In this document: positions 29,850 through 34,024 of the stretch, in pieces
Numbering within the stretch: position 1 is the stretch's first letter
How the letters are laid out: each line of letters starts with the position of its first letter
From: Simkaniaceae bacterium
Lineage (GTDB): Bacteria; Chlamydiota; Chlamydiia; Chlamydiales; JAJFMI01
NCBI GenBank assembly: GCA_040880145.1
Contig: JBBDIZ010000029.1
Coordinates: forward strand, 4,820-68,819
Length of the DNA stretch: 64,000 nt
Direction: 5' to 3'
Position numbers and translations under genes: made by a program
The notes under the pieces: generated by a model
The model's input: only the letters and a program-made list of their open reading frames with translations
The model's database searches: none
Told to the model about the DNA's origin: nothing

Positions 29850-29935
29850 GCGGAAGTGGCGGAATTGGCAGACGCGCTACCTTGAGGTGGTAGTGGGAGT
29901 TATATCCCTTGGGGGTTCAAGTCCCCCTTTTCGCA
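29850..29935 (+). tRNA. tRNA-Leu (anticodon GAG)
   Basis: 86 nt. Acceptor GCGGAAG/TTTTCGC (3 G-U pairs), anticodon stem CTACC/GGTAG with loop TTGAGGT, long variable arm, T-arm GGGGG-TTCAAGT-CCCCC. Confidence 0.88.
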
Positions 29936-29978
29936 AATTTTATTTTTGATTAACATGGCCTACACTATAGGAGGTGTA

Positions 29979-32681
29979 ATGCGGTGTCTATTGTTTCTTT
30001 TTGCTCTGTCACGTCTTATTGGAGCCCCGATTTTCGATAATGTCCTTTCTCTGTCAGAGCTCGGTCAGCGGGCGAATAAGATTCCGAACTTGCTTCCTGC
30101 CGCTCGAATCACTTCAAGTCAGCCTCTTCGAACGAACGATTATCAGACACTTCAGCTCAGCCAGTCGAATCGCTCGATCATTCGTATGGGACCTTACTTG
30201 GTGAGTCAAGCAGGATCAGGCGGTGTATTTGGCAATGGGCCCGGAGTCACGTTCCCTGCTAAAGTTTTTGTTTCAACGGGAACAAATCCCTCTCTTCAAA
30301 TAACAGCAGCAAATTCTGATACGCTTCTCGTCTTTGGATCTTCTGAGACGGCCACTTATACGCTTTCATCAAAACTTGGATCAGGATCGGGGCAGTCGGC
30401 TTCTTTTCAAAGTATGGATTTGACCTATACCCACCCTTCCGATATAGGAAAATGGATTCGAAACTCTTTGGTTGTTGGTAATGCTTTTTTTGACTGCCGC
30501 TACAATGACTTATCTCCAATCTTTACAGCGGATGGCGATACTCACTTGAGTGAAGTGACGATTTTTAGCGCGGCCTTCCCGATGGGAAAGACCTTTACTC
30601 CTGCTTTGGGCGCTATTCAAACATTGGATAAAGCGAATAAACTAAGAGTATCTCTAATCAATACGATTACAAATAAATTGCAGGAGTGGTTGATTTATGT
30701 AGAGCCGCCGGAGACCATGCCTGCCGGCACTCCTGAAATCGCTTTTGAGGCTTATTTTAATGGCTCCGGACCCAATTTACTCGAGTCTCAAGCTGGGGCC
30801 GATGTTCCTTTTACAGGATTTTTAAGGGCGGCTATTGTTCAAGCAGCGCCTGTTCCTTTAAAACAAGATACACGGTTTCAAAAGGCTCTGGGTCCACCAA
30901 GCGAGGTCGATCGCTGGTCTACAGCGCTTGGCATTCAAATTATAGCGGCTTCGCCCGCTTCAATGTATGTGCTTTGGCCAAAGGATTTTCGCGCGGGCGC
31001 TGTGACCAAAATTCGAAAAAACATGAAGGATAATCAATTTTTGCCTTTTTGCCCTTGGATTGCAAATTTCTTGCCTTTGATTGCCTTAGAGGATTCGGAA
31101 GCTGCAAGCGGCTTTTTCTATGCGCTTCAAGATCGGGGGGCGAGCGGATTTGGATTGGGGGTCAACCCTTTTCTAGGCTATTTCAATGTGCTTTTCGGAA
31201 AGTATCAAGCGTCAAGTATCGATGCTTATCAACAAAAAAATCGAAGTTATCCAAGCTATACACTATCTGCTTCAGCCTCTTCGATTGAAAGCGTCTATGA
31301 TGCGTATCGAAGCGTGATCCCTCTTTCGGCTGAGGTGAGTTTTTTAGCCGATAGCTACACTTGGACTTATACAGTCGTCAATGGAAGTGATCCATTAATT
31401 GTTTTTCCTCGTTACAAACAGCTGGATGCGAGCTCTTCGTTACCTCAATTAAAATCTGATTTTATTGTAAAAGACCCCTTCAAAGGAGATCTTTTGGCTG
31501 TAGAGGCCGCTTCAAATAGCGTCACTTTTTCTGAGGGGCCTTCTCCTTCATTCTTAAATCAAGGCTTTATCCCAGATGGGCTGTTCTCTTCTTTTTCTCA
31601 AGATGAGACTCGAACGCTTATAGATCTTTTTCAGAAAGAGATGGCAAATTTTTCTCCTGGAATTGTTATTAATAACACCAACTTAATTTATACGATTGGA
31701 CAGGTTGCATATAAATGGGCATCAACTGTGCGCTATGGAGCTTATTTAATGGGAAAAATGGGGAAAAGTGCTGCTGAAATCAAGACGCTCACTTCTCCTG
31801 TGATGACCGCTTTAAAATCCTTTTTTGAAGAGTGGATGATCAATCGTCAAAAGAAAGTACGGGATGCAAATGGGGGGAGTCTGCCGGATTCTGCAACTGC
31901 GGTGAATTTTTTTGTAGGCGATTCGACAAATCCTGCTGTCAGTGCCGATTTATCGGGAATGAATAATCAAAATCCCGGCACCAATTTTGGAAATGCTTTT
32001 TATAACGATCACCATTTACAATATGGTTATTGGCTGGGTGTTGCCGCCTATATTGTTGAATGGGACAATACCTACAATTCTTCAAACCCTTGGATTGCTA
32101 CGACAAAGCTAACAGCTACGGGCGCCGGCCCCTACAAGATGAAGCGTTTTGTCGATTTATTGTGGCGGGATACGCGAAATCCCGATACGGAAGATCCTGA
32201 TTTACCCTTTAATCGTCACGGAAACATATGGGAGGGGCATAGCACAGCTCTTGGGATCGTTCCGACGCTTGCTCAGACCAATGGACGCAATCAAGAGAGT
32301 TTGGCAGAAGATTTCAACTGCTGGCTTCAAGCCTATTTTTATGCGAGCGAGGTGTTAAAGTCGACAGGGTTGACATCGGATGATTTAAAAGGATTTGACA
32401 CGTTGGTCGATTTTTGTGAGCTAGGATTAAGGCTTGCGGCAACGGGCGGAAATGTCTACTACAATACACCTAATTGGCCTTATGCCAATCGTCCGGGCTT
32501 GAATTTCAATGTCGCAATTGCCAATATCTGGGATAGCTTAGTCGATATGAATACTTTTTTCCCTCCTGGAACGCCGCCGTGCAAGATTTCAGCAGAAGAT
32601 ATGGTCTTCTCTCAAAGTCGACTCAATGCCTTCTTTGAGAATTATCTCGAGGATGAAAAACAAGTGGTCGATCAACTATGA
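29979..32681 (+). CDS. secreted glycoside hydrolase family 81-like endo-beta-1,3-glucanase
   Basis: ATG at 29979 preceded by AGGAGGTG. Signal peptide MRCLLFLFALSRLIGAP. GH81-type blocks FYNDHHLQYGYW, WEGHSTALG and NQESLAEDFN (E-x3-E). Confidence 0.7.
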   Translation: MRCLLFLFALSRLIGAPIFDNVLSLSELGQRANKIPNLLPAARITSSQPLRTNDYQTLQLSQSNRSIIRMGPYLVSQAGSGGVFGNGPGVTFPAKVFVSTGTNPSLQITAANSDTLLVFGSSETATYTLSSKLGSGSGQSASFQSMDLTYTHPSDIGKWIRNSLVVGNAFFDCRYNDLSPIFTADGDTHLSEVTIFSAAFPMGKTFTPALGAIQTLDKANKLRVSLINTITNKLQEWLIYVEPPETMPAGTPEIAFEAYFNGSGPNLLESQAGADVPFTGFLRAAIVQAAPVPLKQDTRFQKALGPPSEVDRWSTALGIQIIAASPASMYVLWPKDFRAGAVTKIRKNMKDNQFLPFCPWIANFLPLIALEDSEAASGFFYALQDRGASGFGLGVNPFLGYFNVLFGKYQASSIDAYQQKNRSYPSYTLSASASSIESVYDAYRSVIPLSAEVSFLADSYTWTYTVVNGSDPLIVFPRYKQLDASSSLPQLKSDFIVKDPFKGDLLAVEAASNSVTFSEGPSPSFLNQGFIPDGLFSSFSQDETRTLIDLFQKEMANFSPGIVINNTNLIYTIGQVAYKWASTVRYGAYLMGKMGKSAAEIKTLTSPVMTALKSFFEEWMINRQKKVRDANGGSLPDSATAVNFFVGDSTNPAVSADLSGMNNQNPGTNFGNAFYNDHHLQYGYWLGVAAYIVEWDNTYNSSNPWIATTKLTATGAGPYKMKRFVDLLWRDTRNPDTEDPDLPFNRHGNIWEGHSTALGIVPTLAQTNGRNQESLAEDFNCWLQAYFYASEVLKSTGLTSDDLKGFDTLVDFCELGLRLAATGGNVYYNTPNWPYANRPGLNFNVAIANIWDSLVDMNTFFPPGTPPCKISAEDMVFSQSRLNAFFENYLEDEKQVVDQL

Positions 32682-33451
32682 AAAAATTTTTTCTCTCTTT
32701 TTTTTTATCGCTTTCTATTTTGAGAGGTGCCTCTTGCCTTGATTTCCATAACTATTCAAAGCTTTGGCTTGGGCCTCAATTTTTCCACCTTCATTTGGGT
32801 GTCGAGGAGCTCAATACTTACAAAGGGTATTTAGGAGGGGCTGCCGCCGGGTTTGAAAGAAAGTATATTTGGGATCTCTATGTCAATCTCAACGGTTCCT
32901 ACGCTTTAGGCAATCTTTCAGGAAATGGAGGTCGAAGCCGCTATATTCATGATGAATATGTTGAAGGACTCTTTGGTTTAAGCATTCCTTTAAGTTGCCA
33001 ATGTAATTGGGTCCTGACCCCTTATCTTGGATATGGATTTACCTTTGTCGATCACCATTTATCCGCTCCAAACTTGTCTTCTTTAAAGTTCCGTTACTCA
33101 AAATACTATCTGCCTATCGGATTCATCCTTGATTATACACCTTTCGATTTTTGGAATATCGGCTTGGATTTTAAGTGGATGCCTCAGATCGATCCTCTTC
33201 TTAAGATCGTTGAGCTTTCAGGGGGAAGATGGGAATTGGCTCATAAGCAAGGCTATATGGTTAAACTTCCGCTTTCGTTTGAGCTGTATGAAAAAAATCA
33301 GACCTTTTGGAGTCTGACTTTAACACCTTTTTGGCGCTGGACTAAGGATGGCTCAACTCAAGCTGTAACAAACAATGGAACTCCTTTAGATATCGTAGAA
33401 AATCTCTATATCTATTGGGGGGCTCAAGCCGCTTTTGCCATTCATTTTTAG
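32678..33451 (+). CDS. outer-membrane beta-barrel protein
   Basis: 257 aa. Signal peptide MKKFFLSFFLSLSILRGASC. Alternating-hydrophobic strands. C-terminal aromatic FAIHF. ATGA overlap with the upstream glucanase gene. Confidence 0.6.
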   Translation: MKKFFLSFFLSLSILRGASCLDFHNYSKLWLGPQFFHLHLGVEELNTYKGYLGGAAAGFERKYIWDLYVNLNGSYALGNLSGNGGRSRYIHDEYVEGLFGLSIPLSCQCNWVLTPYLGYGFTFVDHHLSAPNLSSLKFRYSKYYLPIGFILDYTPFDFWNIGLDFKWMPQIDPLLKIVELSGGRWELAHKQGYMVKLPLSFELYEKNQTFWSLTLTPFWRWTKDGSTQAVTNNGTPLDIVENLYIYWGAQAAFAIHF

Positions 33452-33454
33452 GCT

Positions 33455-34024
33455 CTATACCGAAACGACTTCAAAGTTTTTGGGTAGCTGGATCTCTTCG
33501 ATTTCACTAAATTTGCGCGCATTTACTAAACGTGTAATCAACACTTTCTCTTGAGGGGTTGAATCGATTGAGCATAAAGAATACTCCCCCTCGTGCTTGA
33601 GAAGTTTTAGATAAAAGCTCCACTTTAAAGCTAAAAGGTTTGAGCATCGGCCTAAATATTTGAGATAAGAGCTAAGGAGAAGATAGAGATCTTTACTGGG
33701 CTTCTGGGGGAGTTGGGTTTTCAAAATCATTTTAAAAAATTCAAAGGAAAGGCTCATTTTCTCCCAACTCTCTCTGATAGGCAAATGAAGATCTAGAAGC
33801 GTTCCGTCTCGATACTGAAAGAGTTCACCCCGGCCGGGCTGAAGATTGTAGTCACCCTTTGATAGAGGGCTGATTAAATTTAATTGAATTAGGTTTTTTT
33901 TTGAGGGGGCGTATGCGATAAAAGAGAGAAGACCCTCTTCTTTGGTCAAGAGGGTGCAAACTTTTTTTTCTTTAAGGATATCGATTTTTTTTAGAAGGAT
34001 GCCTTCAACTTTTATCGGTTTCAC
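33455..34024 (-). CDS. recO: DNA repair protein RecO (short form)
   Basis: 189 aa. An OB-fold-like N-terminus KVEGILLKKIDILKEKKVCTLLTKEEGLLSF is typical of RecO. No zinc-finger region. Confidence 0.55.
   Translation of the reverse strand: MKPIKVEGILLKKIDILKEKKVCTLLTKEEGLLSFIAYAPSKKNLIQLNLISPLSKGDYNLQPGRGELFQYRDGTLLDLHLPIRESWEKMSLSFEFFKMILKTQLPQKPSKDLYLLLSSYLKYLGRCSNLLALKWSFYLKLLKHEGEYSLCSIDSTPQEKVLITRLVNARKFSEIEEIQLPKNFEVVSV
33456..33474 (-). repeat. repeat family A copy (TATACCGAAACGACTTCAA), 1 mismatch
   Basis: The reverse complement TTGAAGTCGTTTCGGTATA encodes the last residues (FEVVSV) and the TAG stop of recO. Confidence 0.9.

Follow-up and report, generated by a model that had tools for sequence, protein, structure and literature searches.

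The 64,000-nucleotide stretch of DNA analyzed here (hereafter the window) belongs to a metagenome-assembled genome of a member of the Simkaniaceae, in the phylum Chlamydiota (GenBank contig JBBDIZ010000029.1), and the subject of this report is a pair of adjacent genes within it that encode a glucanase of glycoside hydrolase family 81 (GH81) and an outer-membrane β-barrel protein (OMP). Upstream of the pair lies tRNA-Leu(GAG), at positions 29850–29935 of the forward strand, which ARAGORN and Rfam (47.3 bits) both found where a first-pass annotation of the sequence had put it. A spacer of 43 nt, which includes the Shine-Dalgarno sequence AGGAGG (29969–29974, forward strand, read from the sequence, 4 nt 5′ of the start codon), separates the tRNA from the ATG of the glucanase gene (29979–32681, forward strand, 900 residues). 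The OMP gene follows on the same strand (32678–33451, 257 residues), and its product is identical to the NCBI protein WDZ28_04545. The two reading frames share the start/stop overlap ATGA (32678–32681, forward strand), which can be read directly from the sequence, as the first-pass annotation had done, and which is kept in a sister species (locus L003); we read this overlap as translational coupling of the two genes. A scan for promoters and terminators gave results at chance level, an Rfam scan returned two tRNAs and nothing else, and neither the glucanase nor the OMP matched a model in NCBIfam.

The listing of open reading frames (ORFs) begins the glucanase at a TTG codon at 29946. The ATG at 29979, preceded by AGGAGG, fits the 900-residue NCBI protein and the homologs and is almost certainly the true start; the glucanase homolog in L003 starts with GTG, with an equivalent AGGAGG upstream. 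The N terminus is hydrophobic and forms a predicted Sec-type signal peptide, MRCLLFLFALSRLIGAP. The family assignment follows from Pfam, from solved structures, and from the homologs P0003–P0007. Residues 661–861 match PF17652 (Glyco_hydro81C) at 79.3 bits (cut-off 25.6; E = 4e-22), and a profile of the clade matches the solved GH81 structures 6fop, 5xbz, 4k35, and 5t49 over about 110–360 residues (E = 5e-10 to 2e-7). No match to the GH81 N-terminal domain, PF03639, was found in the window protein, and weak or faint matches were found in the relatives in L091, L100, and L101.

The catalytic-center motifs NDHH and QESxxE (QESLAE in the window; 32007–32309, forward strand) are intact and include D677 (32007–32009), E773 (32295–32297), and E777 (32307–32309). 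Both glutamates are invariant in a five-sequence alignment and align with E578 and E582 of 5xbz (E553 and E557 in 4k35 numbering). The aspartate of NDHH and the two glutamates of QESxxE are what we take, from the enzyme RmLam81A, to be the catalytic residues. Compared with the characterized GH81 enzymes (Rhizomucor miehei RmLam81A, 4k35/5xbz; Bacillus halodurans BH0236, 5t49; and the Clostridium thermocellum enzyme, 6fop), the window protein has a similar catalytic domain, keeps NDHH and the two glutamates four residues apart, and, given its length and the weak N-domain matches of its relatives, may follow the three-domain layout. It differs in that its clade is very divergent, lacks a carbohydrate-binding module, and adds a C-terminal tail that tracks the OMP; the carriers here, where the organism is named, are obligate intracellular bacteria. 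Endo-β-1,3-glucanase is the sole activity reported for GH81 (PMC9609564). By its profile matches the window protein is a divergent member of this known family, and from its intact motifs we infer a catalytically competent endo-β-1,3-glucanase, with both activity and substrate predicted from the family. As a separate observation, the first catalytic glutamate of QESxxE is replaced in two relatives, in L100 (3037–5775; GSGVTSIAEN) and in L097 (5500–8244; GLRSDHIVEN), and these proteins may be inactive or use a different mechanism.

The OMP begins with a signal-like helix (residues 2–17) and ends in the β-signal FAIHF, with a mature part of about 230 residues. The first-pass annotation had called it OMP-like on the basis of the same two features, and structure prediction agrees. 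An AlphaFold model calculated from a 62-sequence alignment is an all-β barrel with a predicted local distance difference test score (pLDDT) of 93.3 and a predicted template-modeling score (pTM) of 0.86. A Foldseek search with this model gave 68 PDB matches at E ≤ 0.001, and among the 50 matches listed all are outer-membrane barrels. The best of them are the 10-stranded OpcA (template-modeling (TM) score 0.65/0.74), a Legionella Dot/Icm-associated porin, and OmpT/Pla (0.55–0.6), compared with 0.44–0.50 for 12-stranded autotransporter domains and 0.26–0.40 (query-normalized) for the 14-stranded channels CymA, FadL, TodX, and OmpG. On this model the barrel probably has 10 strands. The last loop (residues 225–241, DGSTQAVTNNGTPLDIV; 33350–33400, forward strand), delineated by DSSP analysis of the model and by conservation, is the longest and most conserved loop of the window barrel and the place where we propose that the tail of the glucanase makes contact. 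Because the C-terminal strand ends in the periplasm in known OMPs, the loop that precedes it should face outward, and the last loop is therefore predicted to be extracellular. OpcA, a Neisseria adhesin that binds host polysaccharides, and the omptins OmpT and Pla likewise have long strands that project beyond the membrane, and a functional site would be expected at the outer end. The window OMP differs from these proteins in having no sequence similarity to them (about 10% identity) and in being read here as an enzyme partner rather than as a stand-alone adhesin or protease.

In terms of sequence families, the window OMP matches no Pfam or NCBIfam model. It lacks a passenger and does not match the Autotransporter β-domain (PF03797) even at E = 10, and it is also unmatched by the Pom porin family (PF17251). 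Among its 62 aligned relatives, six match PF03797 and two match PF17251 weakly (best E = 1e-4), and some also match the generic OMP_b-brl model weakly. An exhaustive search with a hidden Markov model collected 381 representative homologs, to which a word-indexed search with the family alignment added almost no further members; the terminal phenylalanine is nearly invariant throughout. The family is unnamed and is chlamydial wherever an organism name is available, as it was for one of 20 homologs looked up. The chlamydial major outer-membrane protein MOMP, at about 40 kDa, is larger than the roughly 230 mature residues of the window OMP. The window OMP nevertheless shares a signal peptide, a β-barrel, and a terminal phenylalanine with MOMP, with the MOMP-like proteins of Simkania and Waddlia, and with PomS and PomT of Protochlamydia (PMC3561449), and its family shares with these the frequent cysteine-rich segments that recall the disulfide-linked outer-membrane complex. 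It differs in matching no Pom model, and linkage to a glucanase is unreported for the MOMP and Pom families. Many members of the OMP family (P0010, P0011, P0012, and others) carry an N-terminal extension of 60–425 residues before the barrel; these extensions are cysteine-rich or highly charged, as in CGCCRPRVGKCEEEKCC of P0010, and they too recall the disulfide-linked chlamydial outer-membrane complex.

The association between the two genes extends well beyond this locus. Downstream of GH81 homologs that are only 28–50% identical to the window glucanase lie one or two OMP-family genes in the same orientation, in L006, L090, L092, L093, L094, L095, L100, and L101, with gaps of 0–40 nt in most of the linked loci. 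The identity to the window enzyme is 44% for L006 and 28–29% for L090, L092, L093, L094, and L095. The genes that surround the pair vary and include nucleotide-sugar enzymes in one setting, a Ser/Thr kinase and rRNA methylases in another, and a GH5 cellulase with a holin-family protein in a third. The association was also followed from the side of the barrel, in an unbiased sample, the five OMP homologs whose context could be retrieved (P0009, P0010, P0016, P0019, and P0100). Two of the five (P0010 and P0016) are downstream of a GH81 gene, and a third, P0009, adjoins a full-length GH64 gene, which belongs to an unrelated family of β-1,3-glucanases. The other two, P0019 and P0100, have no glucanase nearby, so that OMP homologs without the enzyme, a finding that the first-pass annotation had named as counting against its proposal, do exist. 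In a rough neighbor-joining tree the window OMP groups with the glucanase-linked P0009, P0010, and P0016; by this comparison the subgroup of the window OMP is tightly tied to β-1,3-glucan enzymes, though some homologs stand alone.

A second line of evidence comes from the C terminus of the enzyme. In an alignment of 14 GH81 proteins, 10 with an adjacent OMP and 4 without, all 10 of the OMP-linked proteins have a tail of 24–44 residues beyond the conserved PGxPxC, with the motif S-x-E-x(3)-[FY]-S-x(2)-[RK]-[LFI]-[DN]-x-F. The unlinked proteins are tail-less, ending 0–6 residues past PGxPxC (4 of 4), and the association of tail with OMP adjacency gives a Fisher p of 0.001, without phylogenetic correction. 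The tail-less proteins of L005 and L091 are nested among tailed relatives, which implies that tail and OMP were lost jointly in at least one or two independent events. In the window, the tail comprises residues 869–900, KISAEDMVFSQSRLNAFFENYLEDEKQVVDQL (32583–32678, forward strand), and is the proposed barrel-docking peptide. Within the clade L090–L095, the tails end in CxC-rich sequence, and the adjacent downstream OMP has a CxCxC(xC) insert in the loop before the last strand. These features point to a contact between the tail and the outward-facing end of the barrel, and in some lineages tail and barrel may be joined by disulfides like those commonly found in chlamydial envelopes. Since the linkage is conserved across deep divergence and in differing contexts, and since the tail of the enzyme correlates with the presence of the partner, the reading of the glucanase and the OMP as a functional pair is well supported by the comparative data. 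To this extent the first-pass suggestion of a dedicated export or anchoring pair stands, and of the anchor and the pore between which it left the choice, the anchor is the more probable.

Several observations on related loci are recorded here in their own right. A marine-sediment contig of 1.5 kb (L008, 443–1423) encodes a 326-residue protein, P0017, in which the first 140 residues of a GH64 enzyme are joined to the last 190 residues of a P0009-like OMP; the counterpart GH64 and OMP genes are divergent neighbors in L098 (4129–6825), and P0017 is a chimera of the assembly or else a genuine fusion that arose by rearrangement. In L100 (60–5778) and L101 (1–5978), the GH81–OMP pair sits beside a GH5 cellulase gene and a gene for a protein of the Phage_holin_4_2 family, surroundings that suggest a larger locus for the degradation of foreign cell walls; the holin recalls Serratia, in which chitinase secretion is holin-dependent. 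Two of the four tail-less, OMP-less GH81 genes, those of L007 and L097, lie beside genes for proteins with a two-partner secretion (TPS) domain (L007, 2950–7842; L097, 1154–5488), and L007 also has a ShlB-like gene.

The reading that we favor, with a probability of about 0.45, is that the two genes form a conserved envelope module of environmental Chlamydiota in which the barrel tethers the glucanase on the bacterial surface. According to this proposal, the glucanase would be exported by the Sec system and produced together with an OpcA/OmpT-like barrel from translationally coupled genes, and the barrel would be inserted by the β-barrel assembly machinery (BAM) by way of its C-terminal phenylalanine signal. 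The tall extracellular end of the barrel, chiefly the conserved last loop, would then capture the tail of the glucanase, and disulfides would lock this contact in some lineages. The enzyme so displayed would cut host-derived β-1,3-glucan, either a laminarin-type storage glucan or a wall glucan. The module itself was placed long ago in the variable junction between tRNA-Leu(GAG) and recO of this lineage. A related genus of the Simkaniaceae infects a photosynthetic dinoflagellate (PMC11317633), and algal hosts are therefore within reach of the family; the genome of the dinoflagellate-infecting member is without the cassette at the tRNA-Leu/recO site.

A number of points weigh against this reading. 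The AlphaFold model of the glucanase, calculated from the five-sequence alignment, has a pLDDT of 52 and is unusable for either the fold or the tail, and the count of ten strands in the barrel derives from TM-scores and DSSP, not from coordinates. The correlation between tail and OMP represents perhaps two to four independent evolutionary events, and the co-variation of cysteines was seen in one clade. The GH64 partner of P0009 is divergently transcribed and has no tail of the GH81 type; a docking tail common to the GH64 and GH81 enzymes was searched for and not found, and the P0009–GH64 link points to a common substrate, not to a common docking peptide. No route was identified by which a folded enzyme of 100 kDa would cross the outer membrane. 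As to breadth, the named records of the GH81–OMP pair are the window (Simkaniaceae) and P0016 (Chlamydiia), and to call the module Chlamydiota-wide is an extrapolation.

The strongest competitor, which we consider unlikely though worth serious weight, is an uptake pair, in which the barrel is a channel for β-1,3-gluco-oligosaccharides such as those of laminarin and a periplasmic glucanase digests what enters, in the manner of the operons that combine a sugar porin (KdgM, ChiP, LamB, or CymA) with a hydrolase. There too a glycan-cutting enzyme and a barrel are encoded as a unit, and the linkage of one OMP clade to two unrelated enzyme families, GH81 and GH64, that are alike in substrate only fits a substrate-centered role of this kind. 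The Sec signal of the glucanase, with no evident device for secretion across the outer membrane, and the weak matches of some family members to the Pom porin and OMP_b-brl models are also as an uptake pair would have them. Against it, the model fits best on OpcA and OmpT, which are 10-stranded and not channels, and poorly on the 14-stranded CymA, FadL, and OmpG, and no 12-stranded sugar channel of the KdgM type is among the matches listed. The partner-correlated tail of the enzyme and the matching cysteine clusters in tail and external loop are left unexplained.

Improbable, and more so than uptake, is a secretion pair, in which the barrel is the translocator of the glucanase, the two amounting to an autotransporter split into two genes, and the tail is a linker that enters the barrel. 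The likeness to type V secretion is that an enzyme as “passenger” and a barrel are encoded together. The six relatives that match the Autotransporter β-domain, the autotransporter barrels among the fold matches, the passenger-plus-barrel arrangement suggested by the long N-terminal extensions of many family members, and the partner-specific tail itself all accord with such a role. However, passenger and barrel are separate polypeptides here, and the covalent joining on which the type Va hairpin mechanism depends is missing; recognition would also be through a C-terminal element and not through a TPS domain at the N terminus. The window barrel fails the Autotransporter model even at a permissive threshold and resembles 12-stranded autotransporter domains less closely (TM 0.44–0.50) than it does OpcA (0.65). 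It is far smaller than the 16-stranded TpsB with its POTRA domains and probably smaller than the 12-stranded barrels of type Va, and a 10-stranded lumen would be too narrow for a polypeptide hairpin.

We regard as more doubtful still the idea that the pair processes or exports a glucan of the bacterium itself, by analogy with BcsZ–BcsC, AlgL–AlgE, and PgaB–PgaA. Exopolysaccharide export operons typically include a hydrolase together with an outer-membrane barrel, and in L090, L092, and L095 the GH81–OMP pair is directly downstream of a nucleotidyl transferase gene and two dehydratase/epimerase genes, a context in line with synthesis of the cell's own polysaccharide. On the other hand, no glucan synthase (GT2) gene neighbors the pair, either in the window or in the other loci examined, and the known export porins have 16–18 strands and TPR domains, unlike a barrel of 230 residues. 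The GH5 cellulase beside the pair in L100 and L101 suggests that foreign walls are the target.

The position of the pair in the genome was examined by a scan anchored on the conserved neighbor HPF, in which about 56 Chlamydiota loci were searched for neighboring proteins and tRNAs. The conserved backbone reads LysM, yidD (reverse strand), tRNA-Leu(GAG), recO (reverse strand), tRNA-Arg(TCG), HPF, HSDR_N, and two MptE-like genes. In the window, yidD (29356–29565, reverse strand; Pfam YidD, E = 7e-29, and synteny) is the conserved backbone gene to the left of tRNA-Leu, and recO (33455–34024, reverse strand; Pfam RecO_N, TIGR00613, and synteny) is the right-hand boundary of the insertion, so that the glucanase and OMP genes occupy exactly the gap from tRNA-Leu(GAG) to the 3′ end of recO. 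Many Chlamydiota loci have this tRNA in the same place, with yidD on one side and recO on the other; it is therefore ancestral to the neighborhood and did not arrive with the cargo.

The comparison of the yidD-to-recO interval, which the first-pass annotation had proposed, gave a divided result. A sister species (L001, L003, L004, and L089) has the same arrangement, including the ATGA overlap, with 71% identity for the glucanase and 62% for the OMP, and a GH81 or OMP family member is present in none of the roughly 56 other Chlamydiota loci with the same backbone. The gap between tRNA-Leu and the 3′ end of recO is 5–12 bp in L013, L021, L022, and L031, and in L009 (Ca. Algichlamydia) and L010, whose HPF proteins are closest to that of the window, yidD directly adjoins recO. 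Unrelated cargo is found at the junction in L024 (1761–5560), L037 (4213–8021), L030 (5610–6836), L017 (6733–7561), and L011 (7574–8188): a Fic/DOC protein with four unknown ORFs in one genome, a 2OG-Fe(II) oxygenase with two unknown ORFs in another, and single unknown ORFs in the remainder, with no mobility genes among the scanned ORFs of this cargo. The tRNA-Leu(GAG)/recO junction is thus a recurrent insertion hot spot in Chlamydiota, and since it is empty or holds other cargo in other members of the phylum, the glucanase/OMP pair is lineage-specific content at a variable, tRNA-adjacent site.

The composition of the pair is native, contrary to the atypical cargo suspected in the first-pass annotation. 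The GC content is 0.444 for the glucanase gene and 0.402 for the OMP gene (window mean 0.413, standard deviation 0.030), the GC content at third codon positions (GC3) is 0.395 and 0.374 (compared with 0.391), and the codon-usage distance is 0.78 and 0.88 (mean 0.88). The partial direct repeat of the tRNA-Leu 3′ end that had been proposed for 33450–33500 was not found at this far border, where the best tRNA-derived matches, near 33450, are 9–22 nt long with E ≥ 0.73. There is no Pfam match to an integrase or transposase among nine ORFs of the interval 26.8–35.2 kb, not counting ORFs of smaller size that overlap these or the MptE-like genes that lie past 35.2 kb. A nucleotide search of plasmids with the locus found nothing, and protein searches of plasmids gave distant GH81 fragments only, from Streptomyces and a haloarchaeon, and no match to the OMP; there is accordingly no sign of a plasmid-borne cassette. 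Common to two species that have diverged to 71% and 62% identity, native in composition, and with neither an integrase nor a tRNA-derived repeat, the insertion is old and is now native to this lineage and vertically inherited. The locus resembles tRNA-linked genomic islands in having lineage-specific cargo directly 3′ of a tRNA, with contents that differ by lineage, and differs from them in having no integrase and no att-type direct repeat, in its native composition, and in being common to two diverged species.

The first-pass annotation had also taken a repeat, family A, to border the segment. An inverted pair of copies does flank it, with 18-nt arms at 29626–29643 and 33456–33473 that are 94% complementary. 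The 17-mer, GAAGTYGTTTCGGTATA, however, has nine copies in the window, compared with 0.49 expected: 13861–13877 (reverse), 13933–13949 (forward), and copies beginning at 18459 (forward), 18505 (forward), 24312 (reverse), 24331 (forward), 28040 (forward), 29627 (forward), and 33456 (reverse). With a copy roughly every 7 kb, a spacing of 3.8 kb between two of them is unsurprising. Copies elsewhere in the window form tight inverted pairs with very stable hairpins (−29.5 and −43.5 kcal/mol, z about −8), and the two near the module, located by motif search outside it at 29627–29643 (forward strand) and 33456–33472 (reverse strand, within the recO 3′ end), are solo half-sites with no stable fold. 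Conservation extends about 11 nt beyond the 5′ end of the 17-mer, as ACCSRATTYTT. The copy at 33456 encodes the final six codons and the TAG stop of recO, and the copy at 28040 shares its 5′ edge with the TGA stop of the LysM-protein ORF. Searched for with up to three mismatches, the motif is missing from the locus of the sister species, and among all fetched loci it is present in none other than a second assembly of the same organism. Family A thus looks like a species-specific dispersed element, similar to repetitive extragenic palindromic (REP) sequences or miniature inverted-repeat transposable elements (MITEs), that lands at gene 3′ ends. With nine copies in the window and none at the sister locus, the repeats were rejected as borders of the module, and a pattern of a tRNA plus flanking repeats can mislead where the repeats are a dispersed genomic element.

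What remains of the small genomic islet proposed in the first-pass annotation is lineage-specific cargo at a variable tRNA junction, without the recent mobility. That the two genes are cargo recently co-transferred to tRNA-Leu within family-A repeats, with no joint function, is very improbable and as a recent event largely refuted: the position of the pair directly 3′ of the tRNA, the variability of the interval, which is empty in several genomes, and the differing contexts of the cassette in other lineages would suit it, whereas the same arrangement in a species about 30–40% diverged at the protein level, the native GC, GC3, and codon distance, the want of a duplicated tRNA 3′ end, of an integrase or transposase in the nine scanned ORFs, and of plasmid copies, the distribution of the repeats, and a tail correlation that co-transfer alone leaves unexplained all argue against it.

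Chlamydiae are obligate intracellular bacteria, and little is known of how the environmental lineages handle host polysaccharides or of their host range. A conserved β-1,3-glucanase module suggests that the hosts or prey have abundant laminarin, chrysolaminarin, paramylon, callose, or wall glucan, and the glucanase/OMP pair can serve as a marker in the search for such associations. The pair also gives the unnamed OMP family, which comprises several hundred sequence clusters, a first functional context. Literature searches turned up no chlamydial GH81 enzyme, no glucanase–barrel pair, and no mention of this OMP family, and the combination of enzyme and barrel as a conserved cassette, with a tail that correlates with the partner, seems not to have been described previously. 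More speculative, and in our estimate rather unlikely as a whole, is a new mode of surface display, in which a stand-alone barrel of about 10 strands captures the C-terminal peptide of a separate, Sec-exported hydrolase, with a disulfide lock in some lineages, as a “split” passenger and barrel for attack on the β-1,3-glucans of algae, fungi, oomycetes, or protists. If tethering by the tail is true, the pair would be a compact two-gene device for surface display, of relevance to outer-membrane biology and possibly to engineering.

The flanks of the locus show two further features. The interval from the LysM-protein gene to yidD (28066–29359) differs between the two sister species. In the window it holds a 152-residue ORF with a weak match to a HypA-like zinc ribbon and a 302-residue ORF; L003 has no detectable homolog of either and has a 328-residue gene on the reverse strand instead, and the 302-residue protein has a single distant match, which adjoins HPF in L046. 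Downstream of HPF, positions 34764–37876 encode a protein with an HSDR_N_2 domain and two MptE-like (PF01973) proteins; nearly all of the Chlamydiota loci examined keep this block together with HPF.

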